From NCBI RefSeq assembly GCF_030013595.1, contig NZ_CP122768.1: DNA of 64,000 bases, one strand, 5' to 3'. The notes beneath the pieces are model-generated. The model was given only the letters and a program-made list of their open reading frames with translations, was not told where the DNA came from and did no database searches. Shown piece by piece: positions 35,421 through 61,689 of the stretch (positions are counted from its first letter, which is position 1; each line of letters begins with the position of its first letter). The stretch is from Escherichia coli. GTDB lineage: Bacteria; Pseudomonadota; Gammaproteobacteria; Enterobacterales; Enterobacteriaceae. The position numbers and the translations under genes were made by a program.

Positions 35421-36043
35421 TTTTGAATCACCGTTGTTGCACAGGAATAAATAAAAGGGAGTTTTACATATTTCTGGTCAATGGCATCTTTCAGAAAATA
35501 GCCTATGCCATCACCATACTCTGGTATCTGAATAGAAAAAACGCTGTCCGATACTGTCACACTCACATCAAAAGTGTGCTGCAACGGCGGGTCTATTCCG
35601 TTTTTTCCATGAATGAACCGCGCCACACGTCGCTTTAACCAGTCAATGCAGAAATGCGAACCGTCAGCCTTATAAAAATTCCACGTTAATATTCGTTTGA
35701 AATAATCATCAGGTACATACGATGCCTGCCCCGGAACGTAATTCCGCATTGCGGCATACGGGATCGTATTGTATTCAATGGTATCGTATGCGCCGCGTGC
35801 AATAGCCTCCTCGGAAACCTGTAGTAAAGGCCTTTCAACGCCATAAATCCCGAGTGCAATCCAGTCCAGCAATTGCCCGGTTATTGATTCCGATGTCCAG
35901 CATGGCAATGCCAGATTGTTGAGTGAATCGAGGTATTCCTGAGCAATTTCATTGTATGCATCAAAGAACGCAACAACATTCGGATCATCTCTGTACTGCA
36001 CAAATGGATAAGCAGGGAGAATTTTCTCAGTCAGATATTGCAT
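35417..36043 (-). CDS. baseplate/tail-fibre adaptor (gpI-position, DUF2612-like)
   Basis: 208 aa from MQYLTEKILPAYPF. This ATG overlaps the end of the J-like gene. The longer 244-aa reading is rejected. Confidence 0.6.
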   Translation of the reverse strand: MQYLTEKILPAYPFVQYRDDPNVVAFFDAYNEIAQEYLDSLNNLALPCWTSESITGQLLDWIALGIYGVERPLLQVSEEAIARGAYDTIEYNTIPYAAMRNYVPGQASYVPDDYFKRILTWNFYKADGSHFCIDWLKRRVARFIHGKNGIDPPLQHTFDVSVTVSDSVFSIQIPEYGDGIGYFLKDAIDQKYVKLPFIYSCATTVIQK

Positions 36044-37253
36044 ACTTGTTGACCTGAACCTGTGATGCCACCGTTGAAAAATAGGAATAGGTATCGCCAT
36101 AAACCAGGCTTGTGTCTTTTGCCGGAGGAACGATATGGCCGTTAATGCCAATGCTCACACTGATTGTTGAGATCAATGTTGCATCAACCAGCAATCTGAC
36201 GGAGCTGGTAAAAATATCCTGGATTCGCAGCAAATTTATCGGGTGACCGACTTCAATAGAATTGATGTAATCAGCAACGTTTTGTTGCACTGCCATAGCA
36301 ATACCCGCCGGATCAACATAATCATCAGACACCGTGTTCCAGGTGATTAGCACCATGACGTTTTGTGATGACGGGATAACGAACGGTACCTGATAAACGT
36401 CCGGCGAAACAGTTATTGAAACCGTGCGTTTTTCCACTGCCGCACCGGATGGATTGCTAACATCGTTGGTCAGTTTCGAAATATCCGGTACAGATTTGTA
36501 AATCGCATAAGCCACATCATACGGATCACCGCCACCAACAACCGCAACCCATTTCCCCAGCGACGACTGCCGGAAAGAAATCAGGTTTTCTCGCACACCG
36601 CTTACTGATTTGAGCATCGCTTTAAAGCAATCCGGTGTTCCCTGCACACCAAACATGCCGGACTCCATGACTTCGGCGCGGTAAGATGCCCACGTCTGCG
36701 CCTCCTGGCCGGGCATTCCTGCGGTAAGGTTCGTGCATTTTACAGGCTGGTCTTTGGGTACTGATGTGATGACCTGCGTCACGGTCCCTTCCGGTACAGC
36801 CCATGAGCCTGACGTAGTGGCCACACAGTAGACTGGCTCAGTCTGCCCGCTTTCCGGTACCACAGTATCGCGGGAAACCGCATACTGGTAGTTGCCGTCA
36901 CCGACAACAAATCCTTTAGGGATACCAAACCCCGGCAACGCCTCAAACACCACGTATACCGCCGTATTTGTACTTAATCCCTTCTGTGCTCCATAAATGT
37001 TTCCGAGTTGCATCAGTAACGGAATATTTGCGCCGTATGGGCTTACGGAGTTAATAAGGTCCACCCGCGCCTGGTCTATTAATGCCAGCGCCCCGACTGC
37101 CGTGCTGGCAAGGTCAGTAATAAGTCCCGCAGGAAGGTTGGCTGTATATCCAGGTACTTTTTCAGCAACTCTGGTGATAAGATTCGCAAGTAAGTCATTG
37201 GGTGGCGTAGGCTGCGCACCCGCACTGGTCATAGTAATTGGTATTTCTGACAT
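36027..37253 (-). CDS. baseplate wedge protein (gpJ-like)
   Basis: About 408 aa from MSEIPITM. Size and position are typical of baseplate J. Confidence 0.65.
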   Translation of the reverse strand: MSEIPITMTSAGAQPTPPNDLLANLITRVAEKVPGYTANLPAGLITDLASTAVGALALIDQARVDLINSVSPYGANIPLLMQLGNIYGAQKGLSTNTAVYVVFEALPGFGIPKGFVVGDGNYQYAVSRDTVVPESGQTEPVYCVATTSGSWAVPEGTVTQVITSVPKDQPVKCTNLTAGMPGQEAQTWASYRAEVMESGMFGVQGTPDCFKAMLKSVSGVRENLISFRQSSLGKWVAVVGGGDPYDVAYAIYKSVPDISKLTNDVSNPSGAAVEKRTVSITVSPDVYQVPFVIPSSQNVMVLITWNTVSDDYVDPAGIAMAVQQNVADYINSIEVGHPINLLRIQDIFTSSVRLLVDATLISTISVSIGINGHIVPPAKDTSLVYGDTYSYFSTVASQVQVNKYAISD

Positions 37254-37274
37254 AATTAATCTCAAGAGGATTTT

Positions 37275-37823
37275 ATGAAATTTAACTCATTAGGGATTTT
37301 GATTAGCTCACTGCTATTTTCTGGTGTTTCTCATGCAATTGATGCCACAGAGAGAATGAATGACATTCAACAGTTCGGTAAATGGTATTATGCTGAATTT
37401 ACCATGCCTACCACTATGGCTTATCGTATTGGTGTTGAATCCAAATTGCCGCAGGATAAATCAACTTTATTTATTGATATATCACCATTAACTCAATGTG
37501 AGCCCGGTGATGTAACTATCAATCATTTTATTGGATATAAACAAATGGATTTACCACCGTTCCTTCCTGTAAGTTATAAAATCAGCGGACAACAAAAGCA
37601 GGACTCTATAACAACCCCATCTATCAATGAGGGTTACTTGTTCAGTCCTATTAGCTCATTAAAGATTAGTGATTTGTTAAAAGCTAAAGGAAAAGGTAGT
37701 TTTTCTTTTTGGTACACTCCGCCAGCTGAAAGCAAAGAAAAACCACAAAAACTATTCTTCCCATTAGATGGCCTCCCGGAAGCATATAAAGCTGCAATCA
37801 ATTCCTGTAAAGAAAACATGTAA
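37275..37823 (+). CDS. secreted protein of unknown function (moron gene 1)
   Basis: 182 aa. SD AAGAGGA. Signal peptide MKFNSLGILISSLLFSGVSHA|ID. Two Cys. AT-rich by eye. Opposite strand to all flanking structural genes. Confidence 0.75.
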   Translation: MKFNSLGILISSLLFSGVSHAIDATERMNDIQQFGKWYYAEFTMPTTMAYRIGVESKLPQDKSTLFIDISPLTQCEPGDVTINHFIGYKQMDLPPFLPVSYKISGQQKQDSITTPSINEGYLFSPISSLKISDLLKAKGKGSFSFWYTPPAESKEKPQKLFFPLDGLPEAYKAAINSCKENM

Positions 37824-37841
37824 AATCAGGCGGTGATATTT

Positions 37842-38306
37842 ATGAAATTGAAATTTTTATCCCTACTTCTTTTTGTGAGCTTTTCTTCACACTCATCTAA
37901 CATATCAAGAATAATATGTAAGCCATCTAATAGCAACGACACCGCAACCTCCGCAATCTGGCCCCAACCTTACCTTTTAAATGATAAATTATGCTTTAAT
38001 ATTAGAATTGACTCTGGAAATGCATGTGTTGCCGATGGTAAAAAAACAACGTGGTTTACTGAATCAGTAATTATAATGCAAAACAACGAATCATTAGGCC
38101 GTGATGATACTTGGTTTAGAGTCAATCGCCCAACAATTAATGACCTACGTATAGAATATACTGTCGAGGCATCTAGGGATAAAGTTAATTGGATTCCTCA
38201 ATCTCACGTAACTATTAATCGGATTTCTGGAGAAGCTATTGATTGGGCGATTTATGAACACGGCGGAACGTCTTACCAGTGCCATCTTGAGGGCAAAAAG
38301 ATATGA
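37842..38306 (+). CDS. secreted Cys-containing protein of unknown function (moron gene 2)
   Basis: 154 aa from the ATG at 37842 (the ORF track starts at GTG 37833). Signal peptide MKLKFLSLLLFVSFSSHS|SN. Starts 18 nt after gene 1. AT-rich. Confidence 0.7.
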   Translation: MKLKFLSLLLFVSFSSHSSNISRIICKPSNSNDTATSAIWPQPYLLNDKLCFNIRIDSGNACVADGKKTTWFTESVIIMQNNESLGRDDTWFRVNRPTINDLRIEYTVEASRDKVNWIPQSHVTINRISGEAIDWAIYEHGGTSYQCHLEGKKI

Positions 38307-38432
38307 TGCACTATCATTAAATTGACTACGGCATCCAACTCTGGCTACAATCCGAACTGAGGCGTCGAAACCTCTTACAAGCGGTACGCAACCAACCCCG
38401 TCAGTGTTGGATTTTTTATGCCTATTTTTTCA

Positions 38433-38455
38433 GTGGTTGCATCATGTGCAACCAC
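38433..38455. promoter_or_regulatory. perfect 9-bp inverted repeat (candidate operator) upstream of the AntA-like gene
   Basis: GTGGTTGCA-tcatg-TGCAACCAC, 130 nt upstream of the ATG at 38586. Confidence 0.5.
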
Positions 38456-38585
38456 ATCCCCGATCAATGTCGGGAGGGCGACGAATACAACACCCGAAAG
38501 GGGAATAAGTCCGCGGTACTTGTAGCCGTTTCGAACCTCCCGACGCCACTTTGGTTCTTCTTCGAAAAAGATACAAGAGGTCATC

Positions 38586-39149
38586 ATGACAACCCAACTG
38601 ATCCCCGTTTTCAACGGAACTATCTCAAACGAAACCATCCTTCTATGCAACGCTCGCGATCTGCATGCCTTTCTCGAAGTAGGTAAGCGCTTTGCCACTT
38701 GGATCACCGAGCGACTTAGCGAGTATGAATTCGTAGAAAATCAGGACTATGTGATTGCTTCCCAAATTCGGGAAGCAAAAGGCCGGGGAGGCCACAACCG
38801 CAAGGACTACCACCTCACCCTAGATACCGCCAAAGAGCTGGCAATGGTTGAGCGCAACGAAAAAGGCCGCCAGATCCGCCGATACTTCATCGAGTGCGAG
38901 AAGAAGCTGCGCGAAGATACCACCAGCACACAATCCCCTCTGAATGTTGACATCATCATGCGCGTCAGAAACGGCTCAGTTACCCACATTGAGCACCACA
39001 AATCAGGCTCAGTTATCACCACAGAATGGGCAATTCACTTACTACGCAAAAGTGGATGGATTGTCATGCCACGCGATGAACTTCTTAACACGCCACTGGC
39101 CCAACTGATGCCCGAAAGCTTGCCTCAAACCGGAACCTGCGTCCGGTAA
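38586..39149 (+). CDS. AntA/AntB-type phage antirepressor-like protein
   Basis: 187 aa. N-terminal AntA-type sequence ARDLHAFLEVGKRFATWITERLSEYEFVENQDY ... DYHLTLDTAKELAMVERNEKGRQIRRYFIECEKKL. Confidence 0.8.
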   Translation: MTTQLIPVFNGTISNETILLCNARDLHAFLEVGKRFATWITERLSEYEFVENQDYVIASQIREAKGRGGHNRKDYHLTLDTAKELAMVERNEKGRQIRRYFIECEKKLREDTTSTQSPLNVDIIMRVRNGSVTHIEHHKSGSVITTEWAIHLLRKSGWIVMPRDELLNTPLAQLMPESLPQTGTCVR

Positions 39150-39472
39150 CTGGTCCCATTAAAAAACACAACATCGATGTTATAGGTGGGGTTCTCTGCC
39201 CCATCTACCTTTGAAATTGCCAGCGATGCAAAATACCCGGCAAACTGTTGCTGAACCATGTTCACATAGTAGTCCGGGTAAATCTGCTGCACGATGCACT
39301 GCTGCGCTGGAATGCCGTAATTCGCGTAAAACGGCGACTCCCCCAACCCCAGCTTTAACGTCTGAATGAGCGTCGTCAGCCAGCCGTAGGAGAAATCACC
39401 GTTGGCGTCAGATTCTACAGCAACCCATTTTTTGTTGCCGTTCGCGTCGGTGACGCGGCCCCATGTTCTCAT
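39125..39472 (-). CDS. small baseplate protein (gpW position)
   Basis: 115 aa in the position preceding J in the operon order. Its 3' end overlaps the convergent AntA-like gene by 25 nt. Confidence 0.55.
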   Translation of the reverse strand: MRTWGRVTDANGNKKWVAVESDANGDFSYGWLTTLIQTLKLGLGESPFYANYGIPAQQCIVQQIYPDYYVNMVQQQFAGYFASLAISKVDGAENPTYNIDVVFFNGTSYRTQVPV

Positions 39473-39475
39473 GCG

Positions 39476-39640
39476 TCAACCTTTCAAGTAAATTAGGGTA
39501 CCGGTAGCCAGAGCGGTACAAATGATCCACGCTACTGGAGTCAGAATATGCCGAATACCCTGACATACTGCGATTATTCTCGCAGCCTTATCAGCTCCTT
39601 GTGGGGTTGTCTCAGCCTTAAGAATCAGTTCGCTATCCAT
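39476..39640 (-). CDS. 54-aa membrane ORF (small ORF B)
   Basis: MDSELILKAETTPQGADKAARIIAVCQGIRHILTPVAWIICTALATGTLIYLKG. C-terminal TM. Its ATG overlaps the stop of ORF A, and its stop lies 3 nt before the next gene. Too short for the ORF track. Confidence 0.5.
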   Translation of the reverse strand: MDSELILKAETTPQGADKAARIIAVCQGIRHILTPVAWIICTALATGTLIYLKG

Positions 39641-39800
39641 TTAGAACCTTTATGATCTCTGCGATTCCCGGAAGCGATTTAGCAACTGCAAACCCTCCGA
39701 TAACTATAAGAACTGCATAAAACATTCTTCTCAGAACCGGACTTCTTTCGAGCAATTTTAGAGCTTCCACAATCCAGTCTCCTCCGCTAAAATTAATCAC
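39633..39800 (-). CDS. 55-aa membrane ORF (small ORF A)
   Basis: GTG start 6 nt after GGAGG. (M)INFSGGDWIVEALKLLERSPVLRRMFYAVLIVIGGFAVAKSLPGIAEIIKVLNG, one TM. Confidence 0.5.
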   Translation of the reverse strand: MINFSGGDWIVEALKLLERSPVLRRMFYAVLIVIGGFAVAKSLPGIAEIIKVLNG

Positions 39801-39925: not shown

Positions 39926-40639
39926 TTAACCCGGATTTGGTTTCTTTGACGTGATCGTGCTGTTGCCGCTTTGAACCCCAGTCACATCGTGGCTGTGACC
40001 GCTGGCGCTGACACCTTTTATCATCGCGTCGTTTTGCACAGTAAGCGGGCCAATCAGCGAAGCGGTTGTATCCTTCATCTGGGCTTTGTCCTGGACGATC
40101 GGTCCGTTGAGGTGAATTTTCCCGTTCAGGAAAATATCTTCGGCCTCGAGGTAAACAGCTTTCGACTTTTGCCTGATTTCTTCCGGTGCCACCGTTACCG
40201 AGCTACTGCCGTCCTCTGTTTTGAGGATCGCGCCATCCGGACCGTACAAAACGATCTTTTGCGGATCTTCGTCGGACCAGTCCTTGTTTGCCAGTGGCAC
40301 GAAAAACAGTGGAGTGAGCGACATCGAGTAAGAGAGCGTCGCCATACCGGTTCCCAATCCGGACACACCGCGCAGGGATACATCAGCGGCAATTGTTACT
40401 CCTCGATCGCCCGGCTGTATCGGGTAACGAATATACGGGAATGTGGCGACAGGGATTGTTATCTGCGGAAAGTTGATCCCCTCCGGCAGCATATCAAACT
40501 GAACTGTCACTATCTGCCCGCTGACACCGACAACATGGCAGGGCAATTCACGACCTTTAAGCTCGGCTTGCTGGTTACCAGAACTGGTCATCATCTCCGA
40601 CAGCGTTCGGAGAAACGGTAATTTTTGAGCGTTTGACAT
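39926..40639 (-). CDS. baseplate central spike (gpV / Gp138-N-like)
   Basis: 237 aa. OB-fold-like N-terminal part and a C-terminal beta-helix/apex with an HSHD motif. Position after the hub. Confidence 0.65.
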   Translation of the reverse strand: MSNAQKLPFLRTLSEMMTSSGNQQAELKGRELPCHVVGVSGQIVTVQFDMLPEGINFPQITIPVATFPYIRYPIQPGDRGVTIAADVSLRGVSGLGTGMATLSYSMSLTPLFFVPLANKDWSDEDPQKIVLYGPDGAILKTEDGSSSVTVAPEEIRQKSKAVYLEAEDIFLNGKIHLNGPIVQDKAQMKDTTASLIGPLTVQNDAMIKGVSASGHSHDVTGVQSGNSTITSKKPNPG

Positions 40640-53180: not shown

Positions 53181-54564
53181 CAGGCGTCTCCTGCTTCGGT
53201 GGTTCATAATTCGCCAGCGCGTCCACATCAATGATGAGTGGAGCTTCGCCATAGGTTTGCGTGGCATTAACAAGGCTTGCCAGCCATTCAGTGACGGCGG
53301 CACGGTTTTCAGGATCAACCTGTGGCGACACGGCAGAAAAAAGTGCTATCGCCTGTTGAATCACTTTACTGTCGCTTTCCCGGCGTTTGTCCGGCGACTC
53401 CTCCACCAGCTCCTGCCACGTCGCGGTAAACTCGCGCCGCCACTGGTAAAACGTGGTTTTATAGTCCTCGGTTATGATGTCCGGGTAATCATTTTTCAGC
53501 GACTGATAAAATTCCTCGTTCCAGGCGATGTACTGCACCAGGCGTTCGAAATAATCCATCACAGGTTCAATCTGCTGGCGTACACCATCGATATACTGGC
53601 TGATGGCTTTCGAGTCCTCCTTACCTTCACCGAATCCGTTACTGAATGCTTCTTCCTTGATAATAATGGCCGGAACGTCACTCCCGGCGGCAATATCAGC
53701 AATGATATTGTCGCGGGCAGTATTCAGCGCCCCGTCGATGTTTTGCAGGTTCAGTGAACTTACGTCTTCGTCTTTTCCAATACTCAACACGCCTTTATTT
53801 TTGGCGGCTTTCACGTTTTCCCTTTTACGCCCCGTGGCAGCAGCCATGATCCCGTCCATTTTCGAACCGTTCTGCACAACTTTAGCTACCAGTACGCCCG
53901 CTTTCTGACTAACGAGATCATTCGCCTCCATCGTGTTGATATAGGATTTCAGGGAATAAAGAACGCGCTGAAACACACTTCGTCCGGTGAATCCGAACGA
54001 TGAACTCTGAAACTCCAGATAAATCGGTGTGCCGTTGAAGATTTTCAGTGTGCGTGACGGATGCCAGTCTTTTCCGCCAATCTTCAGCCTTTTGTTGGCT
54101 TCCTGGAAAAACGGACTGTTTGGGTTCTGGTCAGTCACCATCGAACCGGAAGCGTTCAACGGATCCCACGCGTTGATATACACATCCTCTTCTGTCAGCC
54201 CGAATGTCGGAAGCGGCTCACGACATGAAACACTGTCGGTGCCCACGCCGATCGCTGCAGCACCGTAGCAACGAGACAGAAAAAACAGATTTTTTATCTT
54301 CTCGTTGACCCTCATACGTTCCCATACCTCCTGGAAACGCCGTACAACCCTCTCGTCAGGATCTGTCTCCACGTTATACTGTCGCGGCTTACACATCGCC
54401 ATCAGTATGGGTTTTTCGACAAGTTTTCCGCCCAGAGGATGGAATTGCCACAGCAGCTTACACAATTCATAGCCAATATCGGTTCCCGGCTGAATTTCTT
54501 CAGCCTCAAGAATACGCATCAGTGCTGAACCGAGGCCGCCAGTAATCTCGATCTCTGCCATCAA
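53125..54564 (-). CDS. portal protein
   Basis: 479 aa immediately after TerL. Acidic C-terminus. Typical size. Confidence 0.75.
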   Translation of the reverse strand: MMAEIEITGGLGSALMRILEAEEIQPGTDIGYELCKLLWQFHPLGGKLVEKPILMAMCKPRQYNVETDPDERVVRRFQEVWERMRVNEKIKNLFFLSRCYGAAAIGVGTDSVSCREPLPTFGLTEEDVYINAWDPLNASGSMVTDQNPNSPFFQEANKRLKIGGKDWHPSRTLKIFNGTPIYLEFQSSSFGFTGRSVFQRVLYSLKSYINTMEANDLVSQKAGVLVAKVVQNGSKMDGIMAAATGRKRENVKAAKNKGVLSIGKDEDVSSLNLQNIDGALNTARDNIIADIAAGSDVPAIIIKEEAFSNGFGEGKEDSKAISQYIDGVRQQIEPVMDYFERLVQYIAWNEEFYQSLKNDYPDIITEDYKTTFYQWRREFTATWQELVEESPDKRRESDSKVIQQAIALFSAVSPQVDPENRAAVTEWLASLVNATQTYGEAPLIIDVDALANYEPPKQETPDGNFQPGGEEEETDQDAV

Positions 54565-54579
54565 AAATATCCTGATTTT

Positions 54580-55908
54580 TTACAACGCCGCGTAATTACC
54601 GTGCGCGATGATCAACCCATAGGTGTAACAATCGAAAAGGTCATCAGCACGTTTATGCGCGTCTTTATCCGCCAGGTGGAATCCGGCGATTTGTTTTATG
54701 AGGTGGTTTGCGGTGGTGCGCTTGAATGAAACGGTCTTGTCGTAAGCCTCCCGGACGATTTTGCACACCCCCTGATAGTGGTAGCTGGATGCCATCACCG
54801 CCCGTTCATCTTTGCCCTTGCTGGTTAGTGCCGATTTAATCGGCGTCATATCCCAGCCTTCGGTTTCCGCCTTCTGGTTGAGGATTGCCCCCATCGCGGC
54901 GTCTTCCATAAAAATTCCCTGGCTGCCCAGACGCGGACGGCATAATTTCGCGAGGCGCTCAAGGTTGTCATAAACGCCGGGGATATATTCAGGAAGCAAT
55001 GACGCTTTAATTTGCGTCACATCCCAGTCAATAATCGTCAGTTTTGGCTCGTCCGAATACGTTGACTCATAAGCGAAATACACCACGCCAGTACCATCAT
55101 TTTCGGTCCCGCCTTTCAGCGCCGTATCCATCACTGCGAAAATCATGTCGCAGTACGGCGGCATCTCAATCGGCTGACCGTCCACCAGCAGCTTATCGAC
55201 ATCGAGTAACGCGTCTTTGGACCAGTCCACGAACTCTGCAAGATATTCCTGCTGCCAGACGCGCGGATCGGATTTCTTTTCCGTTTCCTCCAGTTCTTCT
55301 TTCGGAATAAACGGATTCGATGAAGTTGGCGCATGGTGCATGATAAATCCCAGGGATTCATCGTGGCATATCGCGTAGAAAAAATTGCTCTCGTCGATAC
55401 CGTTTGGTGTGGAAAAAACCCACGCACAGCCACGGTAATCGACAAGCGTCGGGCGTATAGCACGGGGCCAGATTTCCTCGAGCATTTCCGGCGATTTAGT
55501 GAATGCAGCCTCATCAATCAGCACAGCGTGATATTTACGCCCACGCCCGGCCAGTTTGTTATTGTCCGTTACCCAAAAGTCGATGCGCCCCCCATTACGG
55601 AGAATGATGCGCTTTTCATTTTTTGACTGGCTGAGGATCAGCGGTTGCAGAACGGCGCTAATTTCATCCCAGATTTCCTGGTACTGGCGGTATTGTGCGG
55701 TAAAAATCCCCACCCTACCCGCGATAAGTTGCCCGGTGGTAGGAACGGCAAATTTCCGCGTAGCGAAACTGGTAGCGATGTTCACCAGCATCACCGTTTT
55801 ACCCCAGCGACGACCACAGCATACCGCGTGGAAGCGTTCCTCTATTGCCGCCGTCCATGCAGCTATTTGCCCCTCATGAGGTTTTGGGAGGTAGATTTCA
55901 ATCGACAT
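54580..55908 (-). CDS. terminase large subunit
   Basis: 442 aa. Walker A CCGRRWGKT and Walker B HAVLIDEAAF. C-terminal nuclease-like half. Confidence 0.85.
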   Translation of the reverse strand: MSIEIYLPKPHEGQIAAWTAAIEERFHAVCCGRRWGKTVMLVNIATSFATRKFAVPTTGQLIAGRVGIFTAQYRQYQEIWDEISAVLQPLILSQSKNEKRIILRNGGRIDFWVTDNNKLAGRGRKYHAVLIDEAAFTKSPEMLEEIWPRAIRPTLVDYRGCAWVFSTPNGIDESNFFYAICHDESLGFIMHHAPTSSNPFIPKEELEETEKKSDPRVWQQEYLAEFVDWSKDALLDVDKLLVDGQPIEMPPYCDMIFAVMDTALKGGTENDGTGVVYFAYESTYSDEPKLTIIDWDVTQIKASLLPEYIPGVYDNLERLAKLCRPRLGSQGIFMEDAAMGAILNQKAETEGWDMTPIKSALTSKGKDERAVMASSYHYQGVCKIVREAYDKTVSFKRTTANHLIKQIAGFHLADKDAHKRADDLFDCYTYGLIIAHGNYAAL

Positions 55909-56989
55909 TATCCACTCCCGGCATCGGCAGAGAGTTGTGGATAATTATTTCGTTATTCTCACCACCCACGCCTTTTTTGAGGTTTTCAATCTCAGTGCGC
56001 AGCTTTTCGTTGCGAAGCCTCAGTCCTTCAAGCTCCAGATCATTGCGACTGTCAGTTGCACCACCAGCAGAACTTCCTTTCGTCGCCGTTATCAGCTTGA
56101 TAAGTTCGCGCCGGGCGGCAGCCTTATCCTCCAGCAGGATCTCAACGCCGAATTTTCCGAGCTTTGCCCCTGCATATAATTGCCGCGCATCCCCATCAAG
56201 TAGAGTGGTATCAGCCATATAAAGCTGTCCCGTTCCCTCACCGCAGCACTTCGGGCAGTCCGGATTGGGTATGGCGTTATCAACAAAGCCGAGGCCTCCA
56301 TATTCTGGTTCAGGCTTACCGTCTTTAGATGCCTGCGCTGCTGCCCTGTCAAATTCTGCTATATCTCGCCACTGGTAGAGGTGATTCTCCCCCCAGCAAT
56401 AACGGCAGTTAACACGGCGAAATTGTGAAATCTGATTGGGATCAGCCTGGACAATGGCCATCAACTGGCTCACCAGTAAATCCAGGTCTGCGGTATAGCG
56501 TTTCTGGTACTGATTGCGGAACCATGAGATAGCCCGATAAACCTTAACATTTCTTAACAGACGTGAGGCTGCGGCACTTGCTACGTTTCCCGTTCCCTCG
56601 TAACCCGCTAGGCGGTATGCCTCGATGAGGTTTTTACCCTGCGCAACCAGCATGGCGAATTTTGCCTGCTGGTCAGAAATGCCGAATTCATCGGGACAGA
56701 ATGAAAATTCCTCCGCGTCGCCCTCATTCAGACACGCATCGGATACTGGCTTTTTTTTCTGAGATTTTCCGTTCCGCTTTTGCGCAGTCTGCGCAGATTT
56801 TTTCTGCGCACTTTGTTGCGCAGTTTTGCACATTTCTGTCTGCGCATTTTTCGGAGGTTTTTTGATGTAACGACGGGCTGTTGCGTAATTCAGTCCCCTT
56901 GCCTCACACCATGCCACCGGAGATACACCGGAGCGGGTGTATTCAGCAATATATTCCTGCTGCAACGCCCCCCAGTCCGGTCTGCTCAT
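55898..56989 (-). CDS. terminase small subunit-like DNA-binding protein
   Basis: 363 aa upstream of and overlapping TerL. N-terminal HTH (VSPVAWCEARGLNYATARRYI), basic AQ-repeat linker, CxxC..CxxC (CRYCW ... CPKCCGEG) and a C-terminal coiled coil. Confidence 0.65.
   Translation of the reverse strand: MSRPDWGALQQEYIAEYTRSGVSPVAWCEARGLNYATARRYIKKPPKNAQTEMCKTAQQSAQKKSAQTAQKRNGKSQKKKPVSDACLNEGDAEEFSFCPDEFGISDQQAKFAMLVAQGKNLIEAYRLAGYEGTGNVASAAASRLLRNVKVYRAISWFRNQYQKRYTADLDLLVSQLMAIVQADPNQISQFRRVNCRYCWGENHLYQWRDIAEFDRAAAQASKDGKPEPEYGGLGFVDNAIPNPDCPKCCGEGTGQLYMADTTLLDGDARQLYAGAKLGKFGVEILLEDKAAARRELIKLITATKGSSAGGATDSRNDLELEGLRLRNEKLRTEIENLKKGVGGENNEIIIHNSLPMPGVDNVD
56781..56846. repeat. cluster of five TGCGCA palindromic hexamers inside terS
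   Basis: TGCGCA at 56781, 56790, 56805, 56817 and 56841, plus the variant TGCACA at 56827. Confidence 0.9.
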
Positions 56990-56992
56990 CAG

Positions 56993-57244
56993 TTAATCCT
57001 GATTTTTATCCACCCTGAGTAGTTCGCGCAGGGCAAAGGCATCCCCTTTTCTGGCAAGCTTAAACAATGCCGCCCGTAGCTCGGCTTCACCTTTCGCTCT
57101 GCCCTTACGGATGGACGCATAAAAATTTGTCATTGCTTCCCGATTTTCTTTCAGTCGGTTCAGATCAACATCCAGAAAGTTAGCGATTTGTTGTGCAGTC
57201 ATCCGGCACGCTGCCAGAGACTCGACTTTCGAATACGGAATCAT
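56993..57244 (-). CDS. small HTH-like protein upstream of terS
   Basis: 83 aa (..MTAQQIANFLDVDLNRLKENRE..). Its stop lies 3 nt before the terS ATG. Confidence 0.55.
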   Translation of the reverse strand: MIPYSKVESLAACRMTAQQIANFLDVDLNRLKENREAMTNFYASIRKGRAKGEAELRAALFKLARKGDAFALRELLRVDKNQD

Positions 57245-60194: not shown

Positions 60195-60620
60195 TTAAGT
60201 ATCTTTTTGTGGTCCCATACAATAATCAGATGAACTACATGTGCTTAAAGAAATTAGTTCGTTAGTAGAGAAGGCCTTTTTAAACTCGGAATCACTCCAC
60301 ACATTCTCCTTATAATAGACCCTTATACTTTCACCAGTAGCATAATAATACTTAGCCATTTCCATCATGGCATCGAAACCTTGTTTATGAGATCCAAAGA
60401 CATCCACCTTACACATATTGTGAATGGGAAGAGTCACATTATCACGCTTTATACCAATACAAAAAAACTGACTTTCCTTACCCCCGGATGTGTAAACTCC
60501 ATATGATAAATTATTTATCTGAACATTACTAAAGTACTTATCATAATCACTCATCACTGCATGACTTGTACCAGATAACAATGAAAGAGCAATTAAGGAA
60601 TATTTTATTTTCCGTTTCAT
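60195..60620 (-). CDS. pltB: AB5 toxin binding (B) subunit, PltB/ArtB/SubB-like
   Basis: 141 aa from [21 protein letters not shown] (signal peptide; SD AAGAGG). ..FFCIGIK...[17 protein letters not shown]...[21 protein letters not shown] parallels PltB/SubB (YFYSTGQSVRIHV..NIW...LSSCS..C.GP) from memory. Confidence 0.8.
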
Positions 60621-60687
60621 AAAACCTCTTATATACGCTAACAAGTTAATCAACAAATCAAATAATAAACACATCATTTCAATAGCA

Positions 60688-61413
60688 TCATTTTATTATT
60701 TCTTTTAACACACCTCTTGCATCATAAAATTCGGGTTCATAATAAGTGGCTCTTTTATTTAAACCATCTCTTCTGACTCCCTTCAGAGCAAAACAGGCAC
60801 TGATCAGACTTCCAAATGCATTGATTCTTTCTCTAACTGACACAGTTGGTACAACTAATTGAGGTATAACACCTGGATTTACAAATGTGGATCCAGGAAC
60901 ATACCTGGCATTGGTGGTTCCGGGTCCATCAGATACTTGACTGTTGAATCTGTCATAAGTCAACTCCACTGCCTCAACAATATTCTCACTAGGGATATGT
61001 TCAACTGCGACAATTTCGTTCTGCTCTCGCATCATTATCCGCTCAAATCCAGAAAAGGTTACACCGCGCTGGGTTAGATAATTGACTGACGGTTGAATAG
61101 GATAAAAAATATTATTTGCCCTGATACGGTAACGATATAATCTACCATGAAATCCAGAACTTGAATAATATTGCCTGGCTATGTTATATGTTTCAATTAA
61201 ACTGGTTGTGGTCGCAATAAATGCACTATCCCTACTTCCTGCCGCACATGAGTCTCCTCTTAAATGTTGCTGTAAATTTCTGTTAAAACCATGAGATCTA
61301 AATCCATCACGAAATATTTCCTCTGGAGGGCGAGAATCCACTCTATAAACAAAATCCGTAGCATTCGCATACCATGAGAAAGAAATGAGAAACAATATAA
61401 ATATTTTCAACAC
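60688..61413 (-). CDS. pltA: ADP-ribosyltransferase (A) subunit, pertussis toxin S1 / ArtA / PltA-like
   Basis: 241 aa, GTG start 7 nt after AAGAGGTG. Signal peptide ..[11 protein letters not shown]-site motif [22 protein letters not shown]-like FIATTTS. Catalytic Glu region MMREQNEIV. Cys pair. Confidence 0.85.
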
Positions 61414-61689
61414 AATATTTCACCTCTTACTTAAAAATAATAGCAACGCCTCCATCAAAATAAATCTAAGAAATAATTAAAAGTCAATCAGAGAGTTGCT
61501 GTCCTCCATGGTTAGCTGACATCTATTTACTCATTTAATTAACCAGAAACATACCACCATCACATCCCGCGCTAATTAAATAAGAAACACCATGTATTCA
61601 ACAAAATATTAAAATTAATACAATCTTTATTTAACAGGAACAGTCAGAATGTGAAAATATAATCAGAAGTGTATACTACGGACGTATGA

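Follow-up and report, generated by a model that had tools for sequence, protein, structure and literature searches.

Two predicted exported accessory genes in a polymorphic cargo hotspot between baseplate genes of an Escherichia coli prophage

Introduction

The window studied here is a stretch of 64,000 nucleotides (nt) from Escherichia coli (contig NZ_CP122768.1). It contains a lambdoid prophage with a contractile-tail module, adjoining uspF/ompN, whose baseplate operon is interrupted between the W-position gene and the J gene by two small open reading frames (ORFs) of opposite orientation, ORF1 and ORF2. These very probably are exported accessory (moron) cargo lodged in a hotspot. As such, they belong to a kind that is already known, the moron or lysogenic-conversion genes found in cargo hotspots, and are ordinary but uncharacterised members of it.

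Moron or lysogenic-conversion genes of lambdoid phages include bor and lom of lambda and the cor genes of phi80, N15 and T1-like phages, the latter being located beside tail and receptor-binding genes. In the same way, ORF1 and ORF2 are extra genes between conserved late genes, show a patchy distribution in close relatives, are AT-rich and encode predicted envelope proteins. However, ORF1 and ORF2 code for proteins that have no lipobox, look soluble and periplasmic and are related in sequence or fold to none of the known examples, among which Lom is an outer-membrane barrel and Cor, Llp and Bor are lipoproteins. Furthermore, unlike these morons, ORF1 appears to be an old resident of its site, and the promoter and terminator found at the locus are pattern-level candidates only.

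Two other types of loci are comparable. The sieA-immI (mnt-arc-ant) region of P22 sits inside the late operon, and SieA is an inner-membrane protein. The present locus resembles it in that an antirepressor gene with RNA-level control lies in the middle of a virion operon, next to an accessory gene that would act on the envelope; unlike in P22, no Mnt or Arc homologues are seen, the RNA belongs to the sRNA-Xcc1 family and not to sar, and the site lies between contractile-tail baseplate genes. The P2 and P4 hotspots are defence or cargo hotspots of temperate phages and their satellites. As in these hotspots, the flanks W and J are fixed and the content between them is highly variable, including a nuclease-like gene and toxin-antitoxin modules. 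In contrast to them, the W-J site lies inside a baseplate operon, and much of its content consists of exported proteins encoded divergently, 21 nt from the start codon of J; PADLOC recognised no system in it.

Some phage proteins act beyond the cytoplasmic membrane. The Spackle protein of T4 is helical, whereas the models of the ORF1 and ORF2 proteins are all-beta. Spackle inhibits the tail lysozyme gp5 (PMC7677548), Llp of T5 blocks FhuA (PMC9586334) and Ltp of a Streptococcus phage is a surface lipoprotein (PMC3952083). The targets of these three are a tail wall-degrading enzyme, a receptor or genome delivery; in our working model, ORF1 would likewise be phage-encoded, exported past the cytoplasmic membrane and directed at a target of this type. 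None of the three is homologous to ORF1 or ORF2; moreover, Llp and Ltp are lipoproteins, unlike the two proteins without lipobox considered here.

Two genes encoding predicted periplasmic proteins

The late operon of the prophage is carried by the minus strand. In order, it carries an SLT-domain tape measure gene, four small baseplate genes, a spike-like gene (39926-40639), the W-position gene, J, an I-like gene and two fibre/chaperone sets. Between W and J lies a plus-strand block made of ORF1, ORF2, a 280-nt leader and an AntA-family antirepressor gene, the last two being part of the same interruption of the operon (Table 1). An earlier note on this DNA, made from the sequence alone, had described two ORFs, AT-rich by eye and with strong Shine-Dalgarno sequences, antisense to the late operon. 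Coordinates and strands agree with this description, including the distances of 21 nt between the J ATG (37253) and the ORF1 ATG and of 18 nt between the two ORFs (37824-37841). So does composition: the guanine-plus-cytosine (GC) content is 0.359 for ORF1 and 0.370 for ORF2 (that is, 0.36-0.37 against about 0.50 in the flanks), where J has 0.499, W 0.517 and the window as a whole 0.489, and GC at third codon positions is 0.30 and 0.31, compared with 0.50-0.65 in the flanking genes.

Both ORFs are real genes under purifying selection. Their lengths (182 and 154 amino acids, aa) are rarely attained in shuffles of the segment with the same composition, in which the longest ATG-initiated ORFs have a mean of 55 aa and a 99th percentile of 104 aa, and comparison of homologues gives ratios of nonsynonymous to synonymous substitutions (dN/dS) of 0.12-0.15 for ORF1 and about 0.3 for ORF2. 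This selection and the existence of homologues exclude that they are spurious ORFs.

The ORF1 protein is predicted to carry a Sec signal peptide (aa 1-21) cleaved between SHA and ID, or between ANA and VD in most of its relatives, leaving a mature protein of 161 aa with Cys75 and Cys178. For ORF2, the predicted signal peptide spans about aa 1-18 and the mature protein would have about 136 aa with four conserved cysteines. The earlier note had proposed for both proteins the presence of cysteines and of signal peptides without lipobox, and the signal peptides and cysteines turn out to be conserved across both families. Thus, every member of both retains an N-terminal lysine or arginine, a hydrophobic core (10 residues, Kyte-Doolittle value above 2.3) and small residues at positions -3 and -1. 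A lipobox is absent from the two proteins of the window and from every ORF1 relative. The pattern is matched (LIAC) by 2 of 15 members of the ORF2 family, which nevertheless does not look like a lipoprotein family because the residue preceding Cys26 is too variable for a lipidation site. Among close homologues, C75 and C178 of ORF1 and C26, C51, C62 and C147 of ORF2 are invariant, a pattern that would be expected of disulfide-bonded periplasmic proteins.

AlphaFold predicts for ORF1 an all-beta sandwich with a C-terminal helix, which matches the fold of a solved IalB member (PDB 3dtd), and for ORF2 a small all-beta barrel that has no confident structural neighbour. As modelled, ORF1 therefore resembles IalB in fold and, like IalB, combines a domain of about 150 aa with a signal peptide at the N terminus. 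The sequences tell otherwise: the Pfam family IalB (PF06776) gives no match for ORF1 or 13 members of its family, even at E values up to 5, and a profile search of PDB sequences with ORF1 does not find 3dtd. Furthermore, IalB is chromosomal in Alphaproteobacteria, whereas ORF1 has no detectable sequence relationship to it and is restricted to a single tail module of phages in Enterobacterales.

The earlier note recognised no family for either protein, and the searches lead to the same result. ORF1 and ORF2 have no match in Pfam, NCBIfam or PADLOC, nor among PDB sequences searched with single sequences and with profiles, and the PADLOC-DB 2.0 models match neither of them nor the alternative cargo proteins of the junction. 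No relation to lipoproteins of the Cor/Llp/Ltp type is found in PHROG or Pfam. A literature search found no paper on the two proteins or on this junction in Escherichia phage Rac-SA53.

The W-J junction, a polymorphic cargo hotspot

The earlier note had asked for a comparison of related prophages at the W-J junction. Among complete E. coli genomes, 88 carry J (counted at at least 95% identity); ORF1 is present in 18 of them and ORF2 in nine, so that about 80% of the E. coli relatives with a near-identical J lack ORF1 or have other cargo in its place. In 25 genomes, the same slot and leader are associated with an unrelated exported protein of 179 aa that has its own signal peptide (the alt-179 type). 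A minus-strand gene for a 386-aa nuclease-like HSDR_N protein is found in 25 genomes at at least 99% identity and in three at about 78%. Other E. coli occupants are exported proteins annotated in RefSeq as members of the LprI family (two full-length and six partial matches, one of which was checked and adjoins J). YafO toxin modules also occur at the junction, including in Serratia oryzae, and Erwinia carries there a divergent gene for a lipoprotein-like protein of 247 aa whose start lies 21 nt from the J ATG.

J was also aligned against one genome per species, which gave an unbiased sample of five relatives from other genera. ORF1, ORF2 and the antirepressor gene are found in 0/5 of them, Serratia sp. 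H1w being visible only to 36 nt upstream of J, where its contig ends. In Yersinia similis, the junction is empty, W and J being directly adjacent (67 nt apart), and the 254 nt of the Winslowiella junction contain no convincing ORF.

The insert is thus present, replaced or absent among relatives, and one J protein (WP_001421090.1) is identical in five strains carrying four different junction contents. The W-J junction is a polymorphic cargo hotspot. With their variable presence at the same junction in close relatives and their deviant base composition, ORF1 and ORF2 behave as the accessory, non-universal genes that the earlier note took them to be.

Within this hotspot, at least three exported proteins that are unrelated to one another are found in the same divergent slot. 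That these cargos have a common origin was considered and rejected, since hhalign comparisons of ORF1 with the 179-aa protein, the Erwinia lipoprotein and ORF2 align nothing other than the signal peptides. The LprI annotation provides a weak link: the E. coli protein that bears it does not reach the Pfam model and is unrelated to the plasmid LprI protein encoded near ORF2 homologues. Nuclease-like and toxin-antitoxin cargo, for its part, is usually associated with phage defence. The minus-strand cargo has its own terminator directly before J, from which we infer that late transcription reads through terminators, as in the antiterminated late operon of lambdoid phages. No tRNA or attachment-site remnants were found in the W-J junction.

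Variable genes also occur elsewhere in related tail modules. In a Buttiauxella prophage (L006, 820-2182), a pair with Hcp-Tlde1 domains and a possible immunity gene lie beyond the fibre genes of the same tail module, and in Salmonella (L014, 9828-10154; L015, 6710-7036) a hok/sok module is inserted between baseplate genes.

Different histories of ORF1 and ORF2

Homologues of ORF1 form 17 clusters among 5.8 billion proteins, all of 175-183 aa and 48-98% identical; a deeper search reached no annotated family, all clusters being at least 48% identical. In the seven contexts looked up, which belong to five genera and include E. coli, Citrobacter, Salmonella and Buttiauxella, ORF1 always adjoins J, is divergent from it, starts 21-30 nt from its start and lies ahead of the W-position gene; in 3/7 it is the sole insert. 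In distant phages, ORF1 is 48-60% identical, to be compared with 56-57% for J and 47-52% for the hub protein, and its GC content stays at 0.34-0.38 in every lineage, including those at 48-60% identity. Since its divergence matches that of J and the hub protein and its composition is constant, ORF1 is best seen as an old resident whose low GC content is maintained and does not indicate a recent arrival. The AT-richness reported by the earlier note stands, but in ORF1 it is not a mark of recent acquisition. From these comparisons, ORF1 appears to be old, locked in position to J and diverging roughly in step with the baseplate proteins. This shared divergence and constant adjacency would fit a function tied to the tail module.

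The history of ORF2 is different. A search among 1.84 billion representatives gives 36 clusters of homologues at 50% identity and reaches no annotated family. Between E. coli and Citrobacter, ORF2 is 95% identical, with a synonymous divergence (dS) of 0.07 against 1.19 for the adjacent J genes, which argues for a recent arrival of ORF2, the flanks having a dS above 1. Furthermore, ORF2 is found without ORF1 in phage-plasmids carrying ParB/KorB/RepL, in an IncFIB plasmid of Klebsiella, in a Raoultella myovirus, where it lies between head genes and tail genes, and in islets on the chromosomes of Pantoea and Pectobacterium. ORF2 thus appears to be a recently moved and freely mobile gene. Its Shine-Dalgarno spacer is kept in relatives without ORF2, which suggests that the gene was deleted there.

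The earlier note had treated the two ORFs as a single cassette. This is contradicted by their histories, and an obligate pair is rejected because each is found without the other; they appear to be two unrelated cargo genes that were acquired independently. In another association, one and the same cytoplasmic protein of about 380 aa is encoded after the ORF2 homologues of Raoultella (L012, 6001-7675) and of the Klebsiella plasmid pKP187 (L024, 5893-7573); it has a weak CARF/HEPN-like match in PADLOC (E value of 0.003). The homologue and this protein may form a separate two-gene module.

Candidate promoters and the antirepressor module

A default promoter scan finds nothing upstream of ORF1. The candidate extended -10 promoter that overlaps the J start codon (Table 1) is a pattern match that occurs in the loci of E. 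coli and Citrobacter, where L016, L004 and L018 have the variant CATAGT, which scores 9 and not 10, as well as in the alt-179 type. The ORF1 leader AATTAATCTCAAG is also common to ORF1 and the unrelated alt-179 cargo type.

Downstream of ORF2, different cargo types share a conserved antirepressor leader, which extends from about position 38359 to the start codon. At the position aligned to the promoter-like sequence that precedes it, L004 and L003 have TTTACA-16-TATGAT. The leader contains a hairpin, which is invariant in an alignment of four loci and belongs to the minimum-free-energy fold but was not called by a terminator scan, a palindrome (38433-38455) and an RNA of the sRNA-Xcc1 family. 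The last element is found ahead of Ant or Bro-N genes at the loci L003, L004, L016, L014 and L015, in relatives from E. coli, Citrobacter and Salmonella and in four other junction variants, and also precedes an ORF6N-domain gene in APSE phages. In enterohaemorrhagic E. coli EDL933, a locus of this family is abundant as RNA and poorly covered by ribosomes (PMC5331693). Its place before Ant or Bro-N genes suggests that the RNA serves antirepressor genes as a regulatory leader and is not an integron-specific small RNA. The 3' ends of the antirepressor and W-position genes overlap by 25 nt. The RNA-plus-antirepressor module is a unit separate from ORF1 and ORF2, and its presence implies that plus-strand transcription within the operon is normal for such prophages.

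Table 1. Coordinates of the features at the W-J junction in the window
Feature	Position	Strand	Remarks
J gene, baseplate J/gp47-like	36027-37253	-	Left boundary of the hotspot; Pfam Baseplate_J (8e-08) and RefSeq annotation
Candidate extended -10 promoter TGaCATAAT of ORF1	37248-37256	+	18 nt before the ATG, overlaps the J start codon; pattern match only
ORF1 Shine-Dalgarno AAGAGG	37264-37269	+	5 nt before the ATG; from sequence
ORF1	37275-37823	+	182 aa; RefSeq hypothetical protein WP_001421089.1; phrog_31333, function unknown
ORF2 Shine-Dalgarno GGCGGTGAT	37829-37837	+	From sequence; kept in relatives without ORF2
ORF2	37842-38306	+	154 aa; RefSeq hypothetical protein WP_157914702.1; phrog_26680, function unknown
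Promoter-like TTGACT-18-TACAAT	38322-38351	+	Just upstream of the conserved leader block of the antirepressor gene; promoter scan
Hairpin CCAAC/GTTGG followed by T6	38392-38417	+	Terminator- or attenuator-like; downstream of ORF2, inside the antirepressor leader
sRNA-Xcc1-family RNA (Rfam RF02221)	38469-38552	+	Full-length match, 78 bits (gathering score 53)
AntA/AntB-family antirepressor gene	38586-39149	+	Pfam PF08346, 8e-27, 94 bits (threshold 27); PHROG anti-repressor
W-position gene	39125-39472	-	115 aa; right boundary of the hotspot; 74-92% conserved in all relatives

Possible roles of the exported proteins

What these proteins do is less clear than what kind of genes they are. The preferred reading is that ORF1 and ORF2 are separately acquired exported accessory genes acting at the envelope of the lysogen by superinfection exclusion; taken as a whole, this proposal is tentative. 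Both genes would be driven, antisense to the late operon, by a promoter lying within the first codons of J, so that the proteins would be made mainly in the lysogen and head-on late transcription would oppose their production during lytic growth. After Sec export and loss of the signal peptide, they would be stabilised by disulfides in the periplasm and would act on the lysogen envelope, blocking the entry of incoming phages. ORF1 would be the older element, linked to the tail module, and ORF2 a recent mobile addition. The exclusion role itself, a block at the envelope or genome-delivery stage proposed by analogy with other phage proteins, is possible but doubtful.

A narrower version can be envisaged, in which ORF1 would found a family of soluble periplasmic IalB-fold blockers of contractile-tail genome delivery and the W-J junction would be a dedicated slot for envelope defence. 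ORF1 would bind the incoming tail tip or the SLT domain of the tape measure, and unrelated exported proteins (ORF1, the 179-aa protein, the LprI-annotated proteins, the Erwinia lipoprotein and ORF2) would be swapped under one promoter at the J start. In this precise form, the proposal is unlikely.

Several observations weigh against exclusion at the envelope. No similarity of ORF1 or ORF2 to known exclusion proteins, lysozyme inhibitors or defence proteins was found, and the quality of the AlphaFold models is moderate, with predicted local distance difference test scores (pLDDT) of 70 and 72, a predicted template modelling score (pTM) of 0.67 and one good model out of five for each protein. 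The candidate promoter of ORF1, a pattern match, is not clearly conserved in distant loci. In close relatives, ORF1 is more variable than its flanks: it is 67% identical where the flanking baseplate proteins are 90-95% identical (about 93%), and 93% identical where the neighbouring baseplate proteins are 99-100% identical. Alleles have therefore evidently been exchanged, and no co-variation of the ORF1 allele with a proximal tail protein is visible. The fibre sets do not track the type of junction cargo. E. coli W, which has one unrelated exported protein at the junction, and strain C7, which has the cytoplasmic HSDR_N protein, both carry the same two fibre sets, and the idea of the earlier note that two fibre sets correspond to two secreted proteins is not retained.

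The alternative that survives best is conversion of the host for fitness or virulence, in which the exported proteins alter the lysogen envelope to suit the niche of the bacterium (adhesion, invasion, stress or serum resistance). Parallels are provided by Bor and Lom of lambda and by the claims made for Bartonella IalB. However, the molecular function of IalB itself is not established, and IalB-domain proteins also take part in cell-envelope growth of free-living Rhizobiales (PMC7327166), so that an IalB-like fold does not imply invasion. ORF1 relatives are found in Buttiauxella and metagenome contigs, and ORF1 is strictly tied to one tail module and not to pathotypes, which leaves conversion a minority explanation.

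A less probable alternative makes of ORF1 and ORF2 periplasmic inhibitors or immunity proteins directed against enzymes or toxins of competitors, such as lysozymes, lytic transglycosylases, type VI secretion system effectors or bacteriocins. Their small size and their predicted disulfide bonds and periplasmic location are usual for such inhibitors, and the tape measure of the phage itself carries an SLT domain. The neighbourhoods point the same way: in some E. coli, the slot holds the proteins that RefSeq annotates as lysozyme inhibitors of the LprI family, phage-plasmids encode an LprI-domain protein and further small exported proteins close to their ORF2 homologues, and one ORF2 homologue of Pectobacterium lies near Hcp and GAPS4 genes. 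Comparisons of ORF1 and ORF2 with the lysozyme inhibitors Ivy, MliC/PliC, PliG, PliI and LprI give neither a profile nor a fold match.

That the proteins act in the lytic cycle, as periplasmic modulators of lysis or as factors against re-adsorption expressed during infection, is improbable. ORF1 has stayed with the tail module over a long divergence, and T5 Llp offers the example of a dual role (PMC9586334), but both genes are oriented head-on to the late operon, and ORF1 is missing from most E. coli relatives and from all five relatives of other genera described above. Lastly, virion components or spurious ORFs, which nothing other than the location inside the baseplate operon would favour, deserve almost no credence: the opposite strand, the signal peptides, the lack of homology to structural families, the absence from most relatives and the contiguity of W and J in Yersinia similis exclude a structural role, in agreement with the earlier note.

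Other features of the prophage

The 3.5-kb segment 36000-39500 is 100% identical to the chromosome of the pig enterotoxigenic E. coli strain ETEC1732 and 96% identical to Escherichia phage Rac-SA53. In the ETEC1732 and ETEC1734 genomes, J, ORF1 and ORF2 each match two places, which suggests that the module is duplicated in the strain or that a second related prophage is present. GenBank PP818812.1, named Actinobacillus phage vB_Apl-pPE4, is about 96% identical to the prophage region; its host assignment looks doubtful.

Between the spike-like and W-position genes lie two overlapping small ORFs of 54 and 55 aa (39476-39800, minus strand) that are unannotated in RefSeq, with one hydrophobic helix each and no Pfam or PHROG match. 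The gap between spike and W ranges from 0 to about 700 nt among relatives, which makes it a second variable spot in the baseplate operon.

Two further minus-strand segments (53217-54653 and 55990-57080) include a head-region gene annotated as encoding an Acb1-family protein directed against the cyclic-oligonucleotide-based antiphage signalling system (anti-CBASS) and a small terminase subunit gene annotated as frameshifted. On account of the terminase frameshift, this prophage copy may be defective. Further along (60286-61504, minus strand), two genes are annotated in RefSeq, one for a scabin-related ADP-ribosyltransferase and one for the binding subunit of a subtilase-family AB5 toxin. This putative toxin pair, which looks like an ArtAB-type pair, sits between the late-regulator region and the lysis genes, i.e., at the position of the Shiga toxin genes in Shiga toxin phages.

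Significance

Three points are of greater interest than the existence of two more cargo genes: the repeated use of one precise, divergent position at the J start for exported proteins, the fact that an IalB-like protein has resided there for long, and the sRNA-Xcc1/antirepressor module. Few phage proteins acting in the periplasm are understood, and defence at the entry stage is the least charted layer of phage resistance. The W-J junction provides a natural comparison set, in which identical flanks surround exported proteins of at least three unrelated kinds, a nuclease-like gene, toxin-antitoxin modules or nothing. If ORF1 and ORF2 confer no phenotype, they remain ordinary uncharacterised prophage cargo; otherwise, this set could show whether the slot is devoted to envelope exclusion and could provide a first molecular function for an IalB-like fold.

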